Source of the DNA: Elusimicrobiota bacterium
GTDB taxonomy: Bacteria; Elusimicrobiota; Elusimicrobia; F11
DNA length: 25,914 nucleotides
NCBI GenBank assembly: GCA_046153645.1
Contig: JBJXGI010000087.1
Location: 1-25,914 of the forward strand
Reading direction: 5' to 3'
The notes beneath the pieces are model-generated. The model saw only the letters and a list, made by a program, of their open reading frames with translations, had not been told where the DNA came from and did not search any database. Shown in pieces: positions 7,194-17,673 of the stretch. Both the position numbers and the translations under genes were made by a program. Within the stretch, counting starts at the first letter, position 1. Each line of letters begins with the position of its first letter.

Positions 7194-10100
7194 TTACGCT
7201 CCCTTGGCCACAATACGAGCAACTCCCACAACAAGTCCCAAATTACGAATCTGAATCATAGGTTGAACGGACAAAAGATCTTCTAAAACAACAAAATTGG
7301 CTTGATAGAAAAAGGCGCTTGGTAAAATATTTGAAATAGACAAAGACGCCAACACATCTTTTGGAAGGACAAAAATAACCTTATCTAACATTTGAGTCTG
7401 ATGAAGTTCACTTAACAACTCTTCAAACTTAACCTGGTCTAAAACGCCATTATCAAACAAATTCTGTTTAGGTAGTAATTTTAGATTCGTGTTTTTATTC
7501 TTCCGAACAAACTTTTTAAATTCAGTTTTATCTCTTTTATCAATAATTAACTGCGCATCAGGGTGAGATATTTCAGTTAAAGCGAAGTAACGATTTAATT
7601 TTCCTCTATCATTTAACCTGCTTACAACCTGAATCCTTTCTTTCAGGAATTCTTCCTTGGTTATTTTCTTGCCGTTCAAAGTCCCCACAGCACTTGCCAA
7701 GGCTTGCATTTCACTTTTTAAAATATCGTTTTGCGACTCCAAATCTAATCTAAAATAAAGTTCTCGAACCCATGCTTCCAATTCATGGGGAGAGGCCCGC
7801 TTAAAGTTTTCAGTGGTTGAGAATTTTTTGCCTATTTCTTCTCTAATAATATTACCCAACAAAGTGTCTAAAATATCTTCGGTCTTTTTAGCTTGAGGAA
7901 AATGGGCCTTTGGCACCACCAACATCGGCAAAACACCCCATTTGTTGTTTTGAGAATGCATAAAAAATGCCCAACCAAAAGCGACAAAGGGTGATATTGT
8001 TAAAGTTAGCCATGCGACATGTGGAAACAAAATCGGTAAATAGGGAAGAGTAAATAGAAGTGAATAAAACGCTCGAATGGGAAGTCTTCGGAAAATAAAC
8101 TGTCTTAAAGGTACCCGGTCTTCATCGGGCCCGGCAATAAGGTCAATCCAAAAATGAAGGACCGCGTGAATTCCTATATATATCAGGGCCCCCACAATTC
8201 CAAAATTGATGATCGCAACCAACCGAAATCCTTCTTCTATAGCGGGCATGATGTAATTTTTAAACACATTCCCGCCTTTATTTCCAATCCAAGACTGAGA
8301 AAAAGGCAGTTTAAACCATTGGCGAAGCTTAGCTATTGCTCTTAATTCTGTTTTTCTAACTCCTTCATGAGTCATACCTAATTTCTTTCCAATTTCATCA
8401 AGAGTTTCACCCAACTCAAAACGACCTTTCAATGTATATATCTCTTTCTCTGGCAACCTTGATATTAATAGTCTTAGTTGTTCTACTTCATCTGGCCCAA
8501 ATTCCACACCTAATCTCAATGATTTTGGATCTGGAATAATTCTTAAATCATCATCATCTGTTTCTTGCTGAAGACTTCTTATTTTTTTCTCTTCATTTTG
8601 AGCAAACCTTCTTAGTTCATGATGAATTCTAAATTTAACGTAAGTCACAAATCCAAAATTAAAATCCGGATTGAATGTTGCGGCGGCTCTTAACATTTCC
8701 AGTAGTCCATGCTGAATTAAATCGCCACTATCAATAGACATTGTTCTATATCTTTTTGCGACTCTTAAGAGAAAAGGGATATTAGGACCAACCAATTCAA
8801 ATCTCGCTTGGTTATACAGCGTTTCTAATCCAACTGTTTTACCGTCTCCTTTTATTTTATGTCTTACTTCATTTGAATATTCCCACTTATTAAAATTAGT
8901 TATGGCCTGAATCACAAGCCATTGTTCACTTATCTTAAGATCTGGATTATTTTTATTCCATTCTTGAATTATTGTTGCTATTTCAGAAGGAGGAGAATTT
9001 TCTAATTGAGTGTAAACGAAGGTTAACTTTTTAACATCTTCGGGAGATAATATATTCTCTATTTTTATAGCATCATTTAGTTCTCCTGGGTTATCTCCCC
9101 GTAATATTTTTTTTATGATTAATATAGGTGTGTCGGTTCCATTCAAATCCTTTTTCATTCTCTTCAAAAGAATCTTCTTGGCCGAGGGATGGTCCACTAG
9201 AGAAGGAAACATCTCAGAAGCAAGTCTTTGAATCTCTCTAGCAACTCGAGTTTCTTCATTTCTGCTCATTTTTTCACCATAAACCTTGAGAATGGATTGA
9301 AAGAAATCGACGTTGGTAACTACCATCGGCAAAACACCCCATTTGTTGTTCTGAGAGTGAATAAAAAATGCCCAACCAAAAGCGACAAAGGGTGATATTG
9401 TTAAAGTTAACCATGCAACATGAGGGAACAAAATCGGTAAATAGGGAAGAGTAAATAGAAGTGAATAAAACGCTCGGATGGGAAGTCTCCGGAAAATAAA
9501 CTGTCTTAAAGGTACCCCGTCTTCATCGGGCCCGGCAATAAGGTCAATCCAAAAATGAAGGACCGCGTGAATTCCTATATATATCAGGGCCCCCACAAGT
9601 CCATAATTGATGATCGCAACCAACCGGAATCCTTCTTCCATAGCGGGCATAAGGTAATTTTTTGTGACATTTCCCCCTCTATTTCCGATCCAAGATTGAG
9701 GAGAAAATGATTCTTCTAATAATTCCTTAAGCTTTGCTAACGCTTCATTTTTAACCATACCGACTCGAGCCTTTGATAATTTGAGTTCCCTTCCTATCTC
9801 ATCGAGAGTCATCCCACGAAAGAAATACATTTCTACAACTGCTCTTTGTTGACGATTCAATCGATCTAGCTTAGAGCGTATCTGATCGGCATGATCTACA
9901 TCTTTTCTGAAATCTGACTTCGTATCGGATAAAAACTCAAAATCAAATTCGTCTTCTTGGAATTTTTCTCCTACACTTGCCTCTTCATTAAGAAAAGCCT
10001 GAAGTCCACGATGAATTGCAGGCTTGGCATATGAAATAAATTGATAGCCTAAATCTGGTTCATAAGTTGCCGCCGCCTTTCGCATTGCAAGGAATCCCTC

Positions 10101-13100
10101 ATTAATTAATTCTGATATATTCATTTTGGGGTTCGATTTTCGATATTTTTTACAAACTAACAATAGATAACGCATATTAGGCACAGTCAGTTTGAATATG
10201 GCAACTTGGTAGGGTTTTTCTAGGCCTTCTTTCTTGTCGTCGCCTTTAATTTTTTTCACAACCACGTCTGAATATTTCCATTTATTAAGACGAGCTAGCG
10301 AAAAAAACACAATCCACTTTTCACGTATTTTTAAATCATCATTTTTATTATTCCATTCGCGAATAATATTTACCATTTGAGATGCTGTGGCATTTTCTAA
10401 ACGCGCATAAATAAGTTGTAGTTTTTTAATATCTGCGACACTTAAGGGAGGCTTACGATTTGATTTTTCAGGGCTTTTTTTAGCAGAATTTTTTTTAGCA
10501 TTCTTTTTTCTAATTAAAACTGGCCCTTCTTTTCCAGCCAAATCTCTTTTCATTCGGGTTAGCACCGCTTCTTTTGCTTGAGGGTTATCTAAAAGTAAAA
10601 GAAGCATTCGAGATGCACCAGCTTCAATTTTTTCTGTCAGGGCTCTTTCTTCAGCTACAGATAAAATGGGATGGTTGTTGAGAAGCGAAGCAAATTCACT
10701 ACTAGCAACCGACATTATTAAAACGCCCCATTTGTTATTCTCAGAATGCATAAAAAATGCCCAACCAAAAGCTACAAAGGGTGATATTGTTAAAGTTATC
10801 CATGAAATATGAGGGAACAAAATCGGTAAATAAGGAAGGGTAAAAAGTAGTGAATAAAAAGCACGAACCCAAAACCGACGAAAAACAAACTGCCTGAGCG
10901 TTACACGGTCTTCATTATGCCCAGCAATAAAATCGATCCAGAAATGAAGCGCGGCGTGAATAAAGATATAAACCACAGCCCCCATAATTCCGAACTGAAT
11001 AATTGCAAGCAACCGGAACCCTTCTTCTATCGCAGGCATAAGGAAATTTTTTGTGACATTCTCTCCTTTATTTCCTAACCAGGATTGAGAAGAAGCTTGA
11101 AATGCCAATTCTCTCAGTTTGTTTAAAGCAGCATCTTTATTTCGTCTTGCTTTGTTTGCTGAATATCTAAATAGTTTTCCAATTTCACTAAAAGTTTTTT
11201 TCTCAAAACCATTTAAACCAAAAAAATGATTTAAAATTAACCGATCTTCCTCTGATTCTAATTTATCGATAAATTGAATTAGATTATATATGTCGCCTGG
11301 TGAAGAGGGTTGAGTCATCCATTGCCGAAGTTTTCCAAATGCTCTGTCTTTGTTTTGACTAACACCTTCTCTTGAAATATTTAAAATCCTCCCAATCTCC
11401 GCGTCATTATAACCTTGAGAAAAAAGTTCTAAGACCTGTCTTTCTTTCTCTGTTAGTCGTTTCATTAATTCAGCTAATTTTTCTCTATCATCAAAATTAA
11501 CTGCTGTCCCTGGTTCATTCAACCTGGGATCATTTTTATTTCTTAGAATACCTTCGTCTACTTGAGGTGATCTATTTAACAATTCCTGTCTTTTAACCAA
11601 TTTTTGTAATTTATTTTTAATAGAAAATCGAGCATAGGAAACAAATTTAAGTCCTGGTAAAGGCTCAAAAGTTGCCGCAGCCCTTTGCATGGCTATTAAA
11701 CCAACTTGAAGCAATTCATCAGGATCAATATTAGATTTTAGGTATCTTTTATATATTCTTAAAAGAAAAGGAATATTAATGACAACCAGTTTAAATTTGG
11801 CCTTTTCATAAACACTTTCTAATCCCGCTTTTTTTTCGTCACCTTTAATTTTCTGAATAACTTTGTCTGAATATGACCAATCTGAAAAATGAGCCAGCGC
11901 ATGCATCACAATCCATCGCTCAGATATTTTGATATCAGAATTTTCTTGATTCCATTTTCGAATAACACTTGTTATTTCTGAAGATTTGACTGCGAGCAGA
12001 TTAGCCTGGAACACTTGCAACCTGCTAATCTCCGCTGGAGTTAATGGTAATTTTCCACTTGATGAATCGGCTTCTTTTTTATTTCTTTTTTCCAATTTTT
12101 TATCAATTGATACTGGCCCTTTTTTTGCTTTTAAATCTTTTTCCATTTGGTGGAGAACAGCGTCTTTGGCTTTCTCATTAGCTAAAAGAAGCGGCAACAT
12201 TCGACCTACGAGCTTTTCAATTTCTTTGGCGAAATCAGCTTCGGTTTTACCTTCTAATTCTCCAGAATGCTGCTCATAAATTTTCTGAACGTAATTCTTA
12301 TTTTCCAACGACATCGGTAAAACGCCCCATTTATTGTTCACAAAATGAAGAAAAGTGCCTATGCTGAAGGCTTCAAAATGTGAAAAGGTCCAAGTTAACC
12401 ATGACGTATGAGGAAATAAAACTGACAGATAGGGAAGTGTAAAAATAACCGAATAAAACATTCGAACAGGAAACCGTCGGAAAATAAATTGCAATAACGT
12501 TAACTGCTCACCAGAGGGAGAAAACATATCTCTATAAACATGGGCCAACGCATGTAAAACAATAAATACAATCGCGCCCCAGAGGCCTCCATGAGTAATA
12601 ACAAAAAAGCGTGCCAGTTCTTCATAAAAAAAACTTAGCCCTTTTTGCCGCTCGTAAATAACTCTAATAAGTTCTCCTGCTTTATTAAACCAACCACGTA
12701 AAATGCCACGTGGATCTTTGAGAGGATATTTGATTTGAGTTTCACCTTCAGTTCCATTTGATTTTTGAACCAACTGAAATATCCCTTGAACGGGCTCAAA
12801 ATTTTGAGGAATAAGTGAATTGGCTAAAAACAATTTTTCACCTTCAAACAACTGATCAAGCGGTGTTTTTTCTTGCGCAAATACGGTAAGGTAGTGTGAA
12901 CCATTTTGAGTTTCCAATTGAGTTAATTTGGGGGTGTATTGAATAACAATGTAGCCGGCCTCTTTTAAACGCTGGTCGATTCCGCTTGAGTGGAAGCCGC
13001 CTGTCACCAAAACTGCGTTTTGGTAATTTCCAAAATTCAAATTACAATTATCAATTGTCTTTTTTAATTTTGGAGATTTGTTTGGTATTTTATTTTTGGC

Positions 13101-14603
13101 ATTTGATTTTTTAATGCTCTCTAAAAAATGACTTGCCATTTTCTCATCGCGAATATTGGCTTGGATGTAGAAATTTTCGTAAGGACTTAAATCTAATATG
13201 AAATCATGGATCCCCGACCCGCCTGCCAGCCGTCGGGCAGACAGAGACATTCGGGGATGACGACTGAGTGCGTTTTTTAATGACGAATATTCTTCCCATT
13301 CGTCTTTGGTTAATGAGAAAGAAAGCAATTTTCCCATCAACATGATCCGTTTTGATTCTAAGACTAGATGACGTTCTGCTTCATTTTTAACCAGAGAAAA
13401 ACATGTTTTATTTTCTAACTCTTTAAGGTCAGAAAATAATTTTTCGAAGCTCATCTGATCAGTCAAAAGAACATATTGGAGATAAGAATTCATTGAAGGA
13501 AATTGTGAAAGTCGAACCCCCTGTTGACCACAAATGTTTTTTAAATACTCATAAAAGCGGGCGTTTGAAACCTTCCCCAATCGGTAAGCAACACTCATAG
13601 ATGTAAGATCTTTTATTTCAGATTTTTTTAACTTGGCCAATAAAATAGATAACAGCTGTTTCCGTTCTTGCTCGACCAAAGAAAAATTTAGTTGCGACTC
13701 CAAATGAAAAGCTTCAAGGAAATTTTGAATGGCAAAAGAATAAGATGGCGATAGTTGAGTGAGATATTCAATATATTTCCCTAAAGACAAATGATCTTCA
13801 TGATACAACTGAGAATATTCGTCCCATTTATATAACGCGGAATTAAAAACGATTTTTTTCTTTTCCTGTAATTCTTTTTTTAGAGTTTCAAGTTTTTGTT
13901 TGTTTTTATCAGTCGAGGATAATGAATCAAGATAAGCCTTCACGTTGGCTTTATAGTGCGTTTTGTCATCCACACCCATAATAAACGGGGATTTTTTTTG
14001 ATCATTTGAAGGACTGTTTAATAAGCCATAAATAGCGCCAGATATTTTTCCTTCGCGGAGAAGATATTGAGAAACTTTTTGATTGGCACTCTGAGAAAAA
14101 GCGTAAAAAGGAGAAAGATCAATCGGAGAAAAAGCGCCCTCTAACCCCAGCACGTTCACTGTATTTTGGTTGGTGAGAGCTTGCACTGTTTTTCCAATAT
14201 TTTTCTGTGCTTCTAAGTTCATATGAACATCTTGAATATGAACAATAACGCCTTTTGGAAGGGTGCTCTCTGGAACAACTATTTTTTGAATGGTGCCATA
14301 AGCCGGGGATAACGATTCAATGACCGGGTTTAAATGCGACAAGAGTGAGGGTGACATAGAAGAATTTAAAAAGGAAGGTAAAGTGGCTTGAATTTTAGGC
14401 AATTGATTGAGAAGCGGCGTATTATTTAATTCTGCTAAGGAACTCGGAAGCTGCGCTAGTTCCACTGAATTTTTTTTATGTACAGATCGGCGTCGTTCAT
14501 CCCAAACATTGGCTTCTGGTTTATAGGCAAAAGCACATTGAGATGAAAAATAAACTGCGGAAATTAAGACCGCTAAATATCGCATAAACCGTTTTTTAAG
14601 CAT
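7194..14603 (-). CDS. Giant 2469-aa modular protein: signal peptide, TraB/Tiki/ChaN-like domain, and 4 membrane repeats alternating with 3 sigma-70-like modules, plus a C-terminal tail
   Basis: Uninterrupted ORF. N-terminus MLKKRFMRYLAVLISAVYFSSQCAFA. Sigma region 2 motifs (e.g. DLIQHGLLEMLRAAATFNPD..FVTY) occur three times and region 4 HTHs (e.g. TLDEIGKKLGMTHEGVRKTELRAIAKLR) four times. Four hydrophobic repeats each end in NNKWGVL(P/I)M. Confidence 0.88.
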   Translation of the reverse strand: MLKKRFMRYLAVLISAVYFSSQCAFAYKPEANVWDERRRSVHKKNSVELAQLPSSLAELNNTPLLNQLPKIQATLPSFLNSSMSPSLLSHLNPVIESLSPAYGTIQKIVVPESTLPKGVIVHIQDVHMNLEAQKNIGKTVQALTNQNTVNVLGLEGAFSPIDLSPFYAFSQSANQKVSQYLLREGKISGAIYGLLNSPSNDQKKSPFIMGVDDKTHYKANVKAYLDSLSSTDKNKQKLETLKKELQEKKKIVFNSALYKWDEYSQLYHEDHLSLGKYIEYLTQLSPSYSFAIQNFLEAFHLESQLNFSLVEQERKQLLSILLAKLKKSEIKDLTSMSVAYRLGKVSNARFYEYLKNICGQQGVRLSQFPSMNSYLQYVLLTDQMSFEKLFSDLKELENKTCFSLVKNEAERHLVLESKRIMLMGKLLSFSLTKDEWEEYSSLKNALSRHPRMSLSARRLAGGSGIHDFILDLSPYENFYIQANIRDEKMASHFLESIKKSNAKNKIPNKSPKLKKTIDNCNLNFGNYQNAVLVTGGFHSSGIDQRLKEAGYIVIQYTPKLTQLETQNGSHYLTVFAQEKTPLDQLFEGEKLFLANSLIPQNFEPVQGIFQLVQKSNGTEGETQIKYPLKDPRGILRGWFNKAGELIRVIYERQKGLSFFYEELARFFVITHGGLWGAIVFIVLHALAHVYRDMFSPSGEQLTLLQFIFRRFPVRMFYSVIFTLPYLSVLFPHTSWLTWTFSHFEAFSIGTFLHFVNNKWGVLPMSLENKNYVQKIYEQHSGELEGKTEADFAKEIEKLVGRMLPLLLANEKAKDAVLHQMEKDLKAKKGPVSIDKKLEKRNKKEADSSSGKLPLTPAEISRLQVFQANLLAVKSSEITSVIRKWNQENSDIKISERWIVMHALAHFSDWSYSDKVIQKIKGDEKKAGLESVYEKAKFKLVVINIPFLLRIYKRYLKSNIDPDELLQVGLIAMQRAAATFEPLPGLKFVSYARFSIKNKLQKLVKRQELLNRSPQVDEGILRNKNDPRLNEPGTAVNFDDREKLAELMKRLTEKERQVLELFSQGYNDAEIGRILNISREGVSQNKDRAFGKLRQWMTQPSSPGDIYNLIQFIDKLESEEDRLILNHFFGLNGFEKKTFSEIGKLFRYSANKARRNKDAALNKLRELAFQASSQSWLGNKGENVTKNFLMPAIEEGFRLLAIIQFGIMGAVVYIFIHAALHFWIDFIAGHNEDRVTLRQFVFRRFWVRAFYSLLFTLPYLPILFPHISWITLTISPFVAFGWAFFMHSENNKWGVLIMSVASSEFASLLNNHPILSVAEERALTEKIEAGASRMLLLLLDNPQAKEAVLTRMKRDLAGKEGPVLIRKKNAKKNSAKKSPEKSNRKPPLSVADIKKLQLIYARLENATASQMVNIIREWNNKNDDLKIREKWIVFFSLARLNKWKYSDVVVKKIKGDDKKEGLEKPYQVAIFKLTVPNMRYLLLVCKKYRKSNPKMNISELINEGFLAMRKAAATYEPDLGYQFISYAKPAIHRGLQAFLNEEASVGEKFQEDEFDFEFLSDTKSDFRKDVDHADQIRSKLDRLNRQQRAVVEMYFFRGMTLDEIGRELKLSKARVGMVKNEALAKLKELLEESFSPQSWIGNRGGNVTKNYLMPAMEEGFRLVAIINYGLVGALIYIGIHAVLHFWIDLIAGPDEDGVPLRQFIFRRLPIRAFYSLLFTLPYLPILFPHVAWLTLTISPFVAFGWAFFIHSQNNKWGVLPMVVTNVDFFQSILKVYGEKMSRNEETRVAREIQRLASEMFPSLVDHPSAKKILLKRMKKDLNGTDTPILIIKKILRGDNPGELNDAIKIENILSPEDVKKLTFVYTQLENSPPSEIATIIQEWNKNNPDLKISEQWLVIQAITNFNKWEYSNEVRHKIKGDGKTVGLETLYNQARFELVGPNIPFLLRVAKRYRTMSIDSGDLIQHGLLEMLRAAATFNPDFNFGFVTYVKFRIHHELRRFAQNEEKKIRSLQQETDDDDLRIIPDPKSLRLGVEFGPDEVEQLRLLISRLPEKEIYTLKGRFELGETLDEIGKKLGMTHEGVRKTELRAIAKLRQWFKLPFSQSWIGNKGGNVFKNYIMPAIEEGFRLVAIINFGIVGALIYIGIHAVLHFWIDLIAGPDEDRVPLRQFIFRRLPIRAFYSLLFTLPYLPILFPHVAWLTLTISPFVAFGWAFFMHSQNNKWGVLPMLVVPKAHFPQAKKTEDILDTLLGNIIREEIGKKFSTTENFKRASPHELEAWVRELYFRLDLESQNDILKSEMQALASAVGTLNGKKITKEEFLKERIQVVSRLNDRGKLNRYFALTEISHPDAQLIIDKRDKTEFKKFVRKNKNTNLKLLPKQNLFDNGVLDQVKFEELLSELHQTQMLDKVIFVLPKDVLASLSISNILPSAFFYQANFVVLEDLLSVQPMIQIRNLGLVVGVARIVAKGA
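7923..8300 (-). repeat. Membrane repeat copy 4 (aa 2102-2227)
   Basis: 378 bp with about 26 mismatches to copy 3 by manual count (~93% identity). Confidence 0.92.
9324..9701 (-). repeat. Membrane repeat copy 3 (aa 1635-1760)
   Basis: PQSWIGNRGGN...MEEGFRL...HAVLH...HSQNNKWGVLPM. Confidence 0.92.
10713..11090 (-). repeat. Membrane repeat copy 2 (aa 1172-1297)
   Basis: SQSWLGNKGEN...IEEGFRL...HAALH...HSENNKWGVLIM. Same length as copies 3 and 4. Confidence 0.9.
12312..12640 (-). repeat. Membrane repeat copy 1 (aa ~655-764, most divergent)
   Basis: YEELARF...FIVLHALAH...FTLPYL..LFPH...HFVNNKWGVLPM. Confidence 0.85.
13025..13110. repeat. AT-rich palindromic element inserted in-frame in the giant gene
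   Basis: TCCAAAATT (13029-13037) and AATTTTGGA (13066-13074) form an inverted pair. Bases 13066-13090 match 17120-17143. Confidence 0.6.
13207..13261. repeat. GC-rich REP-like nested hairpin inside the giant gene
   Basis: Outer stem ATCCCCGA (13210-13217) / TCGGGGAT (13251-13258). Inner stem CTGCC / GGCAG. Confidence 0.7.
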
Positions 14604-14786
14604 AAACCATTATATTGAGGTTTAATTAAAATCACCTTTGATTAATAACCTCTTTTACTTTAACCCACTCCATTTTCATCCCCTCTGATGAATATCCTAT
14701 GCATTTATTGATGTATTTATCATATTGTTTTCGTATTAATTTCCCCTTAACAACTGGTAAATCTTTTGTAACATTTTGACCCTTTT

Positions 14787-15679: not shown

Positions 15680-15940
15680 AAAATTCCTCCCCATTTTATG
15701 GGGAGGTTGGTGGGGAATGGATAGGTTTTTCCTTATATTTTTTAGATTAAATTCTCTACAAAAGAATTATGATGACAATGAAATTGATTTTTTAAAATCA
15801 AGAAACCATAAATTTTTAAGATTTTGGAATAATCATGTTCTGATTAAAAGGGAAAGTGTTCTTGAATCAATGTGAAAATTTTTACAGGGAAGAACCCATT
15901 TATCCCCCACCAACCTCCCCATAAAATGGGGAGGGATTTT
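15680..15940. mobile_element. REP-flanked, MITE-like element with 30-bp perfect terminal inverted repeats
   Basis: CCTCCCCATTTTATGGGGAGGTTGGTGGGG (15686-15715) is the exact reverse complement of 15905-15934. Each arm contains its own CTCCCCAT-N3-ATGGGGAG hairpin. Confidence 0.8.
15717..15875 (+). pseudogene. Remnant of a DUF559 (Vsr-like endonuclease) gene, C-terminal part only
   Basis: Translates as ...KNYDDNEIDFLKSRNHKFLRFWNNHVLIKRESVLESM*, matching the DUF559 C-terminal pattern YD..R..FL...G..VLRFWN..V....E.VLE.I. Confidence 0.65.
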
Positions 15941-17180: not shown

Positions 17181-17447
17181 TTATGCAGATTTTTTTAGAT
17201 AAGTAATATCACCAAAACCCAAGACAAGTCCTGCGACGCTGATGTCTTCATCAATGTTATCCCAATGAAGCCCTGTACCACCACCACTTATTTCAAACTT
17301 AGTTCTTTCGATTGGACTAGCCTTTAATAAGCGCGGGAAAAAAGCTAAGGGCGTTGAAAGTTGCCGCCCATCTTTAAGGGCAACCCATAAATTATCTTCA
17401 TCAAACCAAACTTTTGAAGCAGCGATCTCAATTCCGGAAGTATTCAT
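17181..17447 (-). CDS. DUF2442 family protein (putative antitoxin)
   Basis: L.DGRQLSTPLAFFPRLLKAS..ER..FE.....GLHWDNIDEDISV. Confidence 0.9.
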   Translation of the reverse strand: MNTSGIEIAASKVWFDEDNLWVALKDGRQLSTPLAFFPRLLKASPIERTKFEISGGGTGLHWDNIDEDISVAGLVLGFGDITYLKKSA

Positions 17448-17673
17448 TCCAGCGACTCCTTATTAAACCAATATTTTTCTCGACAATTACTTCCAAATCT
17501 TTCAATTCTCGACTCGTCATTTCATAACTATAACCAACTAAAACGCTAGGTTCCACCCAAAACTTAGCCAATTTCTCTCCCTTCCGAATATGAATATGAC
17601 ACGGTTCCAGTGGAGATCCTTCATTTGAAAAGAAGAAAAATTTATATCCATTCCACTCAAATAACTTGGGCAT
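17428..17673 (-). CDS. DUF4160 family protein (putative toxin)
   Basis: MP.....GYKFFFFSNE...EPCHIHI......AKFW......W.EYF. Overlaps the DUF2442 gene by 20 bp. Confidence 0.9.
   Translation of the reverse strand: MPKLFEWNGYKFFFFSNEGSPLEPCHIHIRKGEKLAKFWVEPSVLVGYSYEMTSRELKDLEVIVEKNIGLIRSRWNEYFRN

Follow-up and report, generated by a model that had tools for sequence, protein, structure and literature searches.

The stretch of DNA analysed here (the window) comprises 25,914 nucleotides of an Elusimicrobiota bacterium (contig JBJXGI010000087.1 of assembly GCA_046153645.1), whose genome is referred to below as G000. The giant open reading frame (ORF) of the window, P0001, encodes 2,469 residues in which a signal peptide and a TIKI-fold head are followed by four membrane modules alternating with three sigma-70-like domains, and then by a C-terminal domain (Table 1). 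P0001 belongs to a family of Elusimicrobiota giants with a signal peptide, a TIKI head with intact catalytic residues and interchangeable cargo, and its final residue is alanine, as in 31 of the 47 family ORFs of G000. The membrane modules are very probably akin to the CPBP clan of intramembrane proteases, and it is an evenly balanced question whether they make P0001 a self-processing polyprotein.

The original prediction placed CPBP/PrsW-clan motifs in all four copies of the membrane repeat, and this is borne out by the sequence. EExxR occurs exactly four times in P0001 (EELAR at residue 661; EEGFR at 1193, 1656 and 2123), HAxxH begins at 684, 1216, 1679 and 2146 with F or Y four residues ahead in every repeat, and HxxxN begins at 753, 1286, 1749 and 2216. 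As also predicted, all lie inside or at the end of hydrophobic helices, between 7,923 and 12,640 of the window. A fifth HALAH, at residue 901, lies inside the first sigma domain and outside any module. Compared with the clan motifs given by the ECOD paper, FxxxH and HxxxN are present in four of four repeats and the Glu-Glu pair as well, but as EExxR rather than the EExxxR of motif 1. Agreement among the four copies counts for less than it seems, since the repeats are themselves close kin. Repeats 4, 2 and 1 are 91, 75 and 47% identical to repeat 3 (the range among the four being 47-91%), and the DNA of repeats 3 and 4 is 95% identical, with 103 of 125 codons shared. This leaves about two independent observations, and the case must therefore rest on relatives.

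A profile of the four repeats matched 6 of 61 related genomes, with every match in an ORF of at least 656 residues, and a 14-member profile of the P0001 clade gave matches in 14 of the 401 genomes of the phylum. The latter added 13 new places, 11 of them in ORFs of at least 1,971 residues and several with canonical EExxxR, FxxxH and HxxxN; a 117-residue match in G153 from the same search was treated as spurious. A broader module profile matched all 12 genomes of the family, four of which had given no sequence to it. Local profile iteration, on a database enriched in PF02517-selected loci, converged on 33 modules, including the PF02517-positive modules of C29 and L070, and drew in no ordinary membrane protein from a background of about 3,000 ORFs. 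Extended further, it reached 60 non-redundant modules, and among 70 significant matches 57 were in ORFs of at least 1,000 residues and 2 in ORFs of under 400; started from the C29 module alone, it retrieved only itself. A hidden Markov model search of 1.84 billion representatives returned 8 matches, among which P0007 and P0008 were dropped as repeat-rich false positives. ESM Atlas gave no usable match, and when the four repeats were back-translated into patterns and scanned against genome contigs, 60 stretches came up, none of them confirmed.

Across the 60 modules the best-kept columns are the first Glu (58), the first His (59), the second His (59) and the Asn (54), set in other columns that are about 21% identical, although this conservation is partly built in, as the collecting profile weights those very columns. 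The position four ahead of the first His is F in 45 and Y in 12 of the 60, and the second Glu varies (kept in 27 of 33). The P0001 clade has in addition an extra His and an extra Asp, four and eight residues past the first His, invariant in 14 of 14 members. The pattern E..H..HxxxN/D in a hydrophobic context, which was written after the modules were seen and applied identically to the controls, is found in 79 of 259 membrane clusters from 151 giants; in other G000 ORFs it marks 4 of 273 clusters, and in reversed giants 3 of 256. In an enlarged set the figures are 120/461 and, for reversed sequences, 4/463. The modules part unrelated cargo. In the relatives matched by the four-repeat profile, receiver, glutamate dehydrogenase-like, HD and GNAT domains were read from the sequences, and Pfam adds adenylate kinase, dehydroquinate synthase, methyltransferase and 4-alpha-glucanotransferase domains in the same proteins. 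Some variants stand apart: 32 of the 120 triads in giants end in HxxxD rather than HxxxN and lack enrichment of the tail motif described below, possibly forming a second module class. Other types of membrane module, with WE...H...HxxHN-like motifs, recur between cargo domains in L013:3717-11048 and P0005 and were missed by the profile, and a 10,189-residue giant (G000:C86:11315-41881) has tandem membrane modules with HExxH-like motifs.

The link to the CPBP clan runs through these relatives. The P0001 repeats as such have no match to PF02517 at E up to 10, and single repeats match nothing in Pfam at E up to 10 save for a weak EI24 match. However, C29, the closest paralogue of P0001 by head domain, carries directly behind its head a module that scores 27.9 bits against PF02517, above the cut-off, as does the paralogous giant C19 (22.8 bits, same position), and giants elsewhere in the phylum exceed the cut-off too. 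PF02517 is matched at E up to 1 by 12 of the 31 aligned modules, 8 of which were not selected by PF02517, and the NCBIfam families matched by several members are both CPBP (MrtJ, 5/31; MroQ, 4/31). Direct profile comparison came out at decoy level: set by hhalign against 22 CPBP proteins that stand alone, the four repeats and the 15-member clade had probabilities of 1.0 and 0.5%, on a par with shuffled decoys. Only the broad module profile attained 73% (E 3e-5), and PF02517-selected members are part of that profile. The proposed kinship is thus upheld by transitive profile links, by the fold ranking and by the family-wide Glu, His, His and Asn, and not by direct similarity between repeat and CPBP profile. 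With EExxR, four helices and no score, exact membership of PF02517 failed, and the P0001 repeats are filed as a divergent CPBP variant. The two families that had been brought forward as near relatives fit less well. PrsW has EExxK where the repeats have Arg, and PF13367 has no match above cut-off in G000 and weak matches in 3 of 31 distant modules (best E 0.0011); YhfC/DUF2324 shares EExxR, yet at E up to 1 nothing in G000 matches PF10086.

An AlphaFold model of repeat 3 (predicted local distance difference test, pLDDT, 86.6; 31 sequences) was compared with 48,161 chains by VIA. Chain 6u0o_A of the SagB-SpdC entry, taken for SpdC because of its length and the title of the entry, ranked first (Z 6.5, root mean square deviation (rmsd) 3.8, 104 aligned) and Rce1 (4cad_C) second (Z 5.7, rmsd 3.9, 109 aligned), both Z values lying below the level that VIA calls meaningful for helical bundles. 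The match spans residues 125-246 of Rce1 and, if its ends are ungapped, places E1656 on E140, H1749 on H227 and N1753 on N231. These are three of the four catalytic residues of Rce1, in which the second Glu is non-catalytic and eight helices surround a cavity that opens on the cytoplasm-type face (PMC5874806). Run over the 238 candidates from Foldseek, VIA had no CPBP chain in its top 50, and APH-1 is absent among the 50 best VIA rows listed for the module model. Sequence searches of the PDB gave nothing relevant.

The charge distribution bears on topology. Lys and Arg make up 14.8% of the N-flank, 14.6% of the middle loop and 11.2% of the C-flank, compared with 0.5 and 1.1% of the other two loops. 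By the positive-inside rule, loops rich in these residues lie on the cytoplasmic side, and the bias puts the cargo and the active site of the modules on one cytoplasm-type face, so that cleavage in cis would be topologically possible. There is no hydrophobic helix between the head and module 1. Were the head exported by the usual Sec route, all the modules would end up inverted, in conflict with the charge bias. Paralogues of P0001 have a similar signal-peptide-like N-terminus, as read from their sequences.

A candidate position for cleavage is found in the tail of the module. In many modules a hydrophobic stretch, 6 to about 30 residues past HxxxN, ends in Met/Ala-Ser followed by a hydrophobic residue, just ahead of the cargo; the tail Met residues of P0001 are 764, 1297, 1760 and 2227. 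With patterns composed after the tails were seen, this motif follows 27 of 55 linked modules compared with a background of 13%, and a stricter form follows 10 of 55 compared with 1.5%. As a cleavage site the tail motif is a lead only. The Met that follows each repeat could be left over from the start codons of captured genes, but relatives carry Ala, Gly or Leu there, which weakens this reading.

As had been described, repeats lie on either side of the sigma cargo of P0001. This consists of three sigma-70-like domains, Pfam finding region 2 in three stretches and region 4 in four. Each domain begins with a region-1.2-like part, followed by a shortened non-conserved region and then by regions 2 and 4. 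Region 3 is absent, leaving a gap of about 55 residues relative to the RpoD of the genome, and the tryptophan pair of region 2.3 is replaced in all three copies. Region 3 and this pair have a role in promoter melting, so the domains may differ from the usual promoter-opening factors, perhaps being alternative factors or decoys. They are 38-40% identical to each other, and modules 2-4 are 75-91% identical. The original prediction made the repeats a sigma-specific device for regulated proteolysis, and neither qualifier is supported. A sigma domain is next to just 6 of 60 modules and present in 10 of 245 giants, which makes the module a general spacer and not a sigma-release device. No sensor or anti-sigma was identified, and the arrangement departs from an RsiW/PrsW-type scheme, where a separate membrane anti-sigma is the substrate and is first cut at site 1 in response to a signal, in that the sigma domains are fused to the modules; the genes flanking P0001 encode an AAA_14/DUF4143 protein and lipoyl synthase. 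Sigma cargo beside modules recurs in L013, L049 and C71. The last (G000:C71:4302-9788) is a paralogous giant in which two modules enclose a sigma region 2 along with several repeats resembling region 4.

The head of P0001 is widespread. Its first 600 residues match 48 G000 ORFs, mostly giants and some fragments, and a scan of genome contigs gave 294 relatives, the best 80 of which are all labelled Elusimicrobia/Elusimicrobiota or Ca. Obscuribacterium. PF04187 (ChaN) is matched by 12 of 25 heads (best E 4.5e-6). For the head model (pLDDT 80) the top five VIA matches are Bcr136, ChaN, Bcr135, HopBA1 and EreC, all TIKI (Z 7.5-8.6, rmsd 3.4-6.4, 154-186 aligned), and the head accordingly has the TIKI fold's core, a parallel beta-sheet. 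Its D125, H127, E155, R485 and H538 follow the catalytic set of RRSP, which consists of two His, two acids and a conserved Arg (PMC6254334). All five are invariant in the aligned heads of 245 giants (Asp 232/232, His 232/232, Glu 235/235, Arg 236/236, His 235/235), the first Asp and His counts being biased in that both residues were part of the pattern that fetched 80 head loci. The head thus resembles members of the TIKI superfamily (ChaN PF04187, EreA/Bcr135, HopBA1, RRSP) in fold and, as in RRSP, in the order acid-x-His, Glu 30 residues on, Arg and His; it differs from them in that Asp replaces the first Glu and in a helical insert of about 260 residues. Judged by these residues, the head is a second candidate protease in P0001, one that the earlier account of this DNA did not mention.

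The reading that P0001 is a self-processing polyprotein with CPBP-like cutting spacers has, in our estimation, an even chance of being right. Here we infer catalysis, action in cis, the site of cleavage and the fate of the cargo: each repeat would be a pared-down, four-helix glutamic-protease core of the CPBP/Rce1 clan, used as a portable spacer of Elusimicrobiota giants. On the model of Rce1, water would be activated by the first Glu together with the first His, and the HxxxN pair would form the oxyanion hole. The likeliest substrate would be the chain of the giant itself, probably in the short hydrophobic tail past HxxxN that ends in a Met/Ala-Ser-like motif before the next cargo, and the pieces released from P0001 would be its three atypical sigma-70 domains. 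If active, the module would to our knowledge be the smallest CPBP-clan protease.

Several observations weigh against this reading, in addition to the low Z values, the missing direct profile similarity, the partly built-in conservation and the tail patterns drawn up with the tails in view. With about 125 residues and four hydrophobic helices, the module lacks the eight-helix body of Rce1; its Glu and His are 23 residues apart, compared with 33 in Rce1, and DSSP merges helices A and B of the repeat-3 model into one run (H10-55). The Foldseek comparison that had been put forward as a check gave no match at E up to 0.001 for the module (or the head). In known assays SpdC, the top structural match, is a non-catalytic scaffold for SagB whose function does not need the putative catalytic residues (Schaefer et al., bioRxiv 2020). 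The triad is seen in only 91 of 245 giants, though many giants are truncated, and the head is a candidate protease in its own right. The tail motif fades in a broad set (16/88 compared with 6.9%, a 2-3-fold enrichment), and of the held-out tails, which came from 6 new modules in 94 proteins and of which 4 were usable, none matches the three set patterns. By eye, two of these four contain Met-Ser.

What the modules would do if they do not cut their own chain can be pictured in several ways. They could have the CPBP fold and be non-proteolytic, serving as staples that keep cargo at the membrane and using their polar residues to bind lipid, metal or a partner helix. The invariant extra His and Asp of the P0001 clade could make a metal site, the core is without four of Rce1's eight helices, and SpdC combines an Rce1 fold with a non-catalytic role; a pro-sigmaK-like tether would be enough to hold sigma inactive. 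We nonetheless consider this unlikely, as the four positions that are catalytic in Rce1 are near-invariant among modules that have otherwise diverged, whereas the second Glu, non-catalytic in Rce1, is free to vary. It is likewise doubtful that the modules are active on other targets (further membrane proteins, of the cell itself or of a target cell, or a bond that is not a peptide bond), or that they present the tail to the TIKI head, which then cuts it. The head has its catalytic set whole in every aligned giant and would lie together with the tails on one face, no hydrophobic segment separating it from module 1, and known CPBP enzymes act in trans. For action in trans, however, one copy would be enough, yet there is one per cargo boundary, and modules 2-4 have stayed alike while the cargo between them diverged.

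The version of the original prediction, in which dedicated regulated intramembrane proteolysis frees functional sigma factors in the producing cell, appears very improbable. Each sigma domain is indeed bracketed by modules, such cargo recurs beside modules in three other loci and lies on the face rich in Lys and Arg, and the giant genes have a common upstream element that some regulator must read. Against this stand the few modules and giants with sigma domains, the want of an identified sensor or anti-sigma, the absence of region 3 and the replaced RpoD tryptophan pair; moreover, a signal peptide and an even number of helices would put the sigma domains outside the cytoplasm of the producer. 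The conflict between signal peptide and charge bias motivates a further reading, itself distinctly unlikely, in which the giants are delivered effector polyproteins: they would be exported via the signal peptide, the modules would enter a host or prey membrane with the cargo facing its cytoplasm, and each module would free cargo by cutting. Such a route would fit both the export signal and the cytoplasm-type charge bias and would account for the cytoplasmic enzymes found in giants, and P0001 would then free three sigma mimics that capture or redirect the RNA polymerase of the target.

Compared with CPBP/Rce1 proteins (PF02517; MmRce1, PDB 4CAD; the myxosortase-type MrtJ and MroQ), the P0001 modules have the same order of Glu, His and His-x3-Asn, with F/Y four before the first His. 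They differ in having four helices only, EExxR, a shorter Glu-His spacing and the extra His and Asp, and in being repeated within one chain rather than stand-alone. SpdC of Staphylococcus aureus (PDB 6U0O) has the Rce1-like fold proposed for the modules and, unlike them, eight helices in a stand-alone protein. Known CPBP members cut other proteins, either prenylated CaaX proteins or Cys-containing C-terminal sorting signals (PMC5874806; Haft 2023); the latter are processed in trans, and neither "Elusimicrob" nor "giant" occurs in the accessible text of that paper (Haft 2023). The nearest precedent is the proposal that polymorphic toxins are autoprocessed by PrsW, in which a membrane peptidase of the CPBP clan is fused to variable cargo and releases it by autoproteolysis (Zhang et al. 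2012, PMC3482391). Those toxins have one N-terminal, eight-helix PrsW and a C-terminal toxin, in contrast to the four internal four-helix modules, TIKI head and housekeeping-like cargo of P0001, for which no toxin family was found in Pfam or the top NCBIfam matches.

Giants of Omnitrophota and Elusimicrobiota have been described as having a signal peptide, many membrane helices and a mosaic of enzyme domains, with processing suspected (bioRxiv 10.1101/2023.11.21.568195; 10.64898/2026.06.07.730766; PMC11573180). As far as their accessible parts go, these papers point to C39 or S8 peptidases, call the cleavage points unknown and leave open whether a bacterial giant acts as a single chain or is cleaved, at which points and by which agent; in one of them, membrane regions were excluded from folding. 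Neither CPBP nor CAAX occurs in the accessible text of one of them (bioRxiv 10.1101/2023.11.21.568195), and a literature search that covered subscription papers and supplements little had, among the papers listed, none that connects giant proteins with CPBP modules. The small size of the module (125 residues), its four named residues and its candidate site make the question of giant-protein processing testable in E. coli, and modules of this kind mark domain boundaries in hundreds of unannotated giants. P0001 provides a clean case for testing, a link through structure and sigma domains as cargo. If active, its modules would be a bacterial counterpart of viral polyprotein processing, carried out in the membrane.

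Table 1. Features of P0001 and its upstream region in the window.
Feature	Position	Strand	Details
Giant ORF P0001, 2,469 residues	7194..14603	-	Signal peptide, TIKI-fold head, four membrane modules and three sigma-like domains alternating, C-terminal domain
Upstream DNA element, TTACA / TTTAC / TTAAG repeats	14735..14773	-	Limits set by eye
Sec-type signal-peptide-like N-terminus, residues 1-26	14526..14603	-	Basic start, hydrophobic core, AxA site; read off the sequence
TIKI/ChaN/EreA-fold head with large helical insert	12804..14297	-	D125, H127, E155, R485, H538 correspond to TIKI catalytic set
Membrane module 1, residues 648-762	12318..12662	-	E661/E662, H684, H753, N757
Sigma-70-like cargo 1	11094..12314	-	Region 1.2-like start, non-conserved region, region 2, region 4, additional region 4; no region 3
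Membrane module 2, residues 1173-1295	10719..11087	-	E1193/E1194, H1216, H1286, N1290
Sigma-70-like cargo 2	9708..10715	-	
Membrane module 3, residues 1636-1758	9330..9698	-	E1656/E1657, H1679, H1749, N1753; modelled copy
Sigma-70-like cargo 3	8307..9326	-	
Membrane module 4, residues 2103-2225	7929..8297	-	E2123/E2124, H2146, H2216, N2220
C-terminal domain, no Pfam family	7197..7925	-	Also in three paralogous giants of G000

The element upstream of P0001, with its spaced TTACA / TTTAC / TTAAG-like repeats, is common to many of the 36 upstream regions of giant genes in G000, where 8-mers are enriched (e.g., in 7 of 36 regions, with 0.16 expected). It lies about 130-170 nucleotides ahead of the start of P0001 and nearer in other giant genes, and it looks like a common operator or promoter.

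Elsewhere in the window, an inverted repeat with 58-nucleotide arms (15680-15940) lies between the lipoyl synthase gene and the next gene; with related pieces on at least five other contigs, it appears to be like a miniature inverted-repeat transposable element (MITE) or a repetitive extragenic palindromic (REP) element. The contig end (1-2240) has a higher GC content (48-50% compared with about 38%), carries an AbiEii nucleotidyltransferase gene with a probable partner gene upstream and an SRAP gene, and is possibly a mobile island. On the reverse strand at 17181-17673, a DUF4160/DUF2442 gene pair is inserted among genes that we take to be glycine-cleavage-like.

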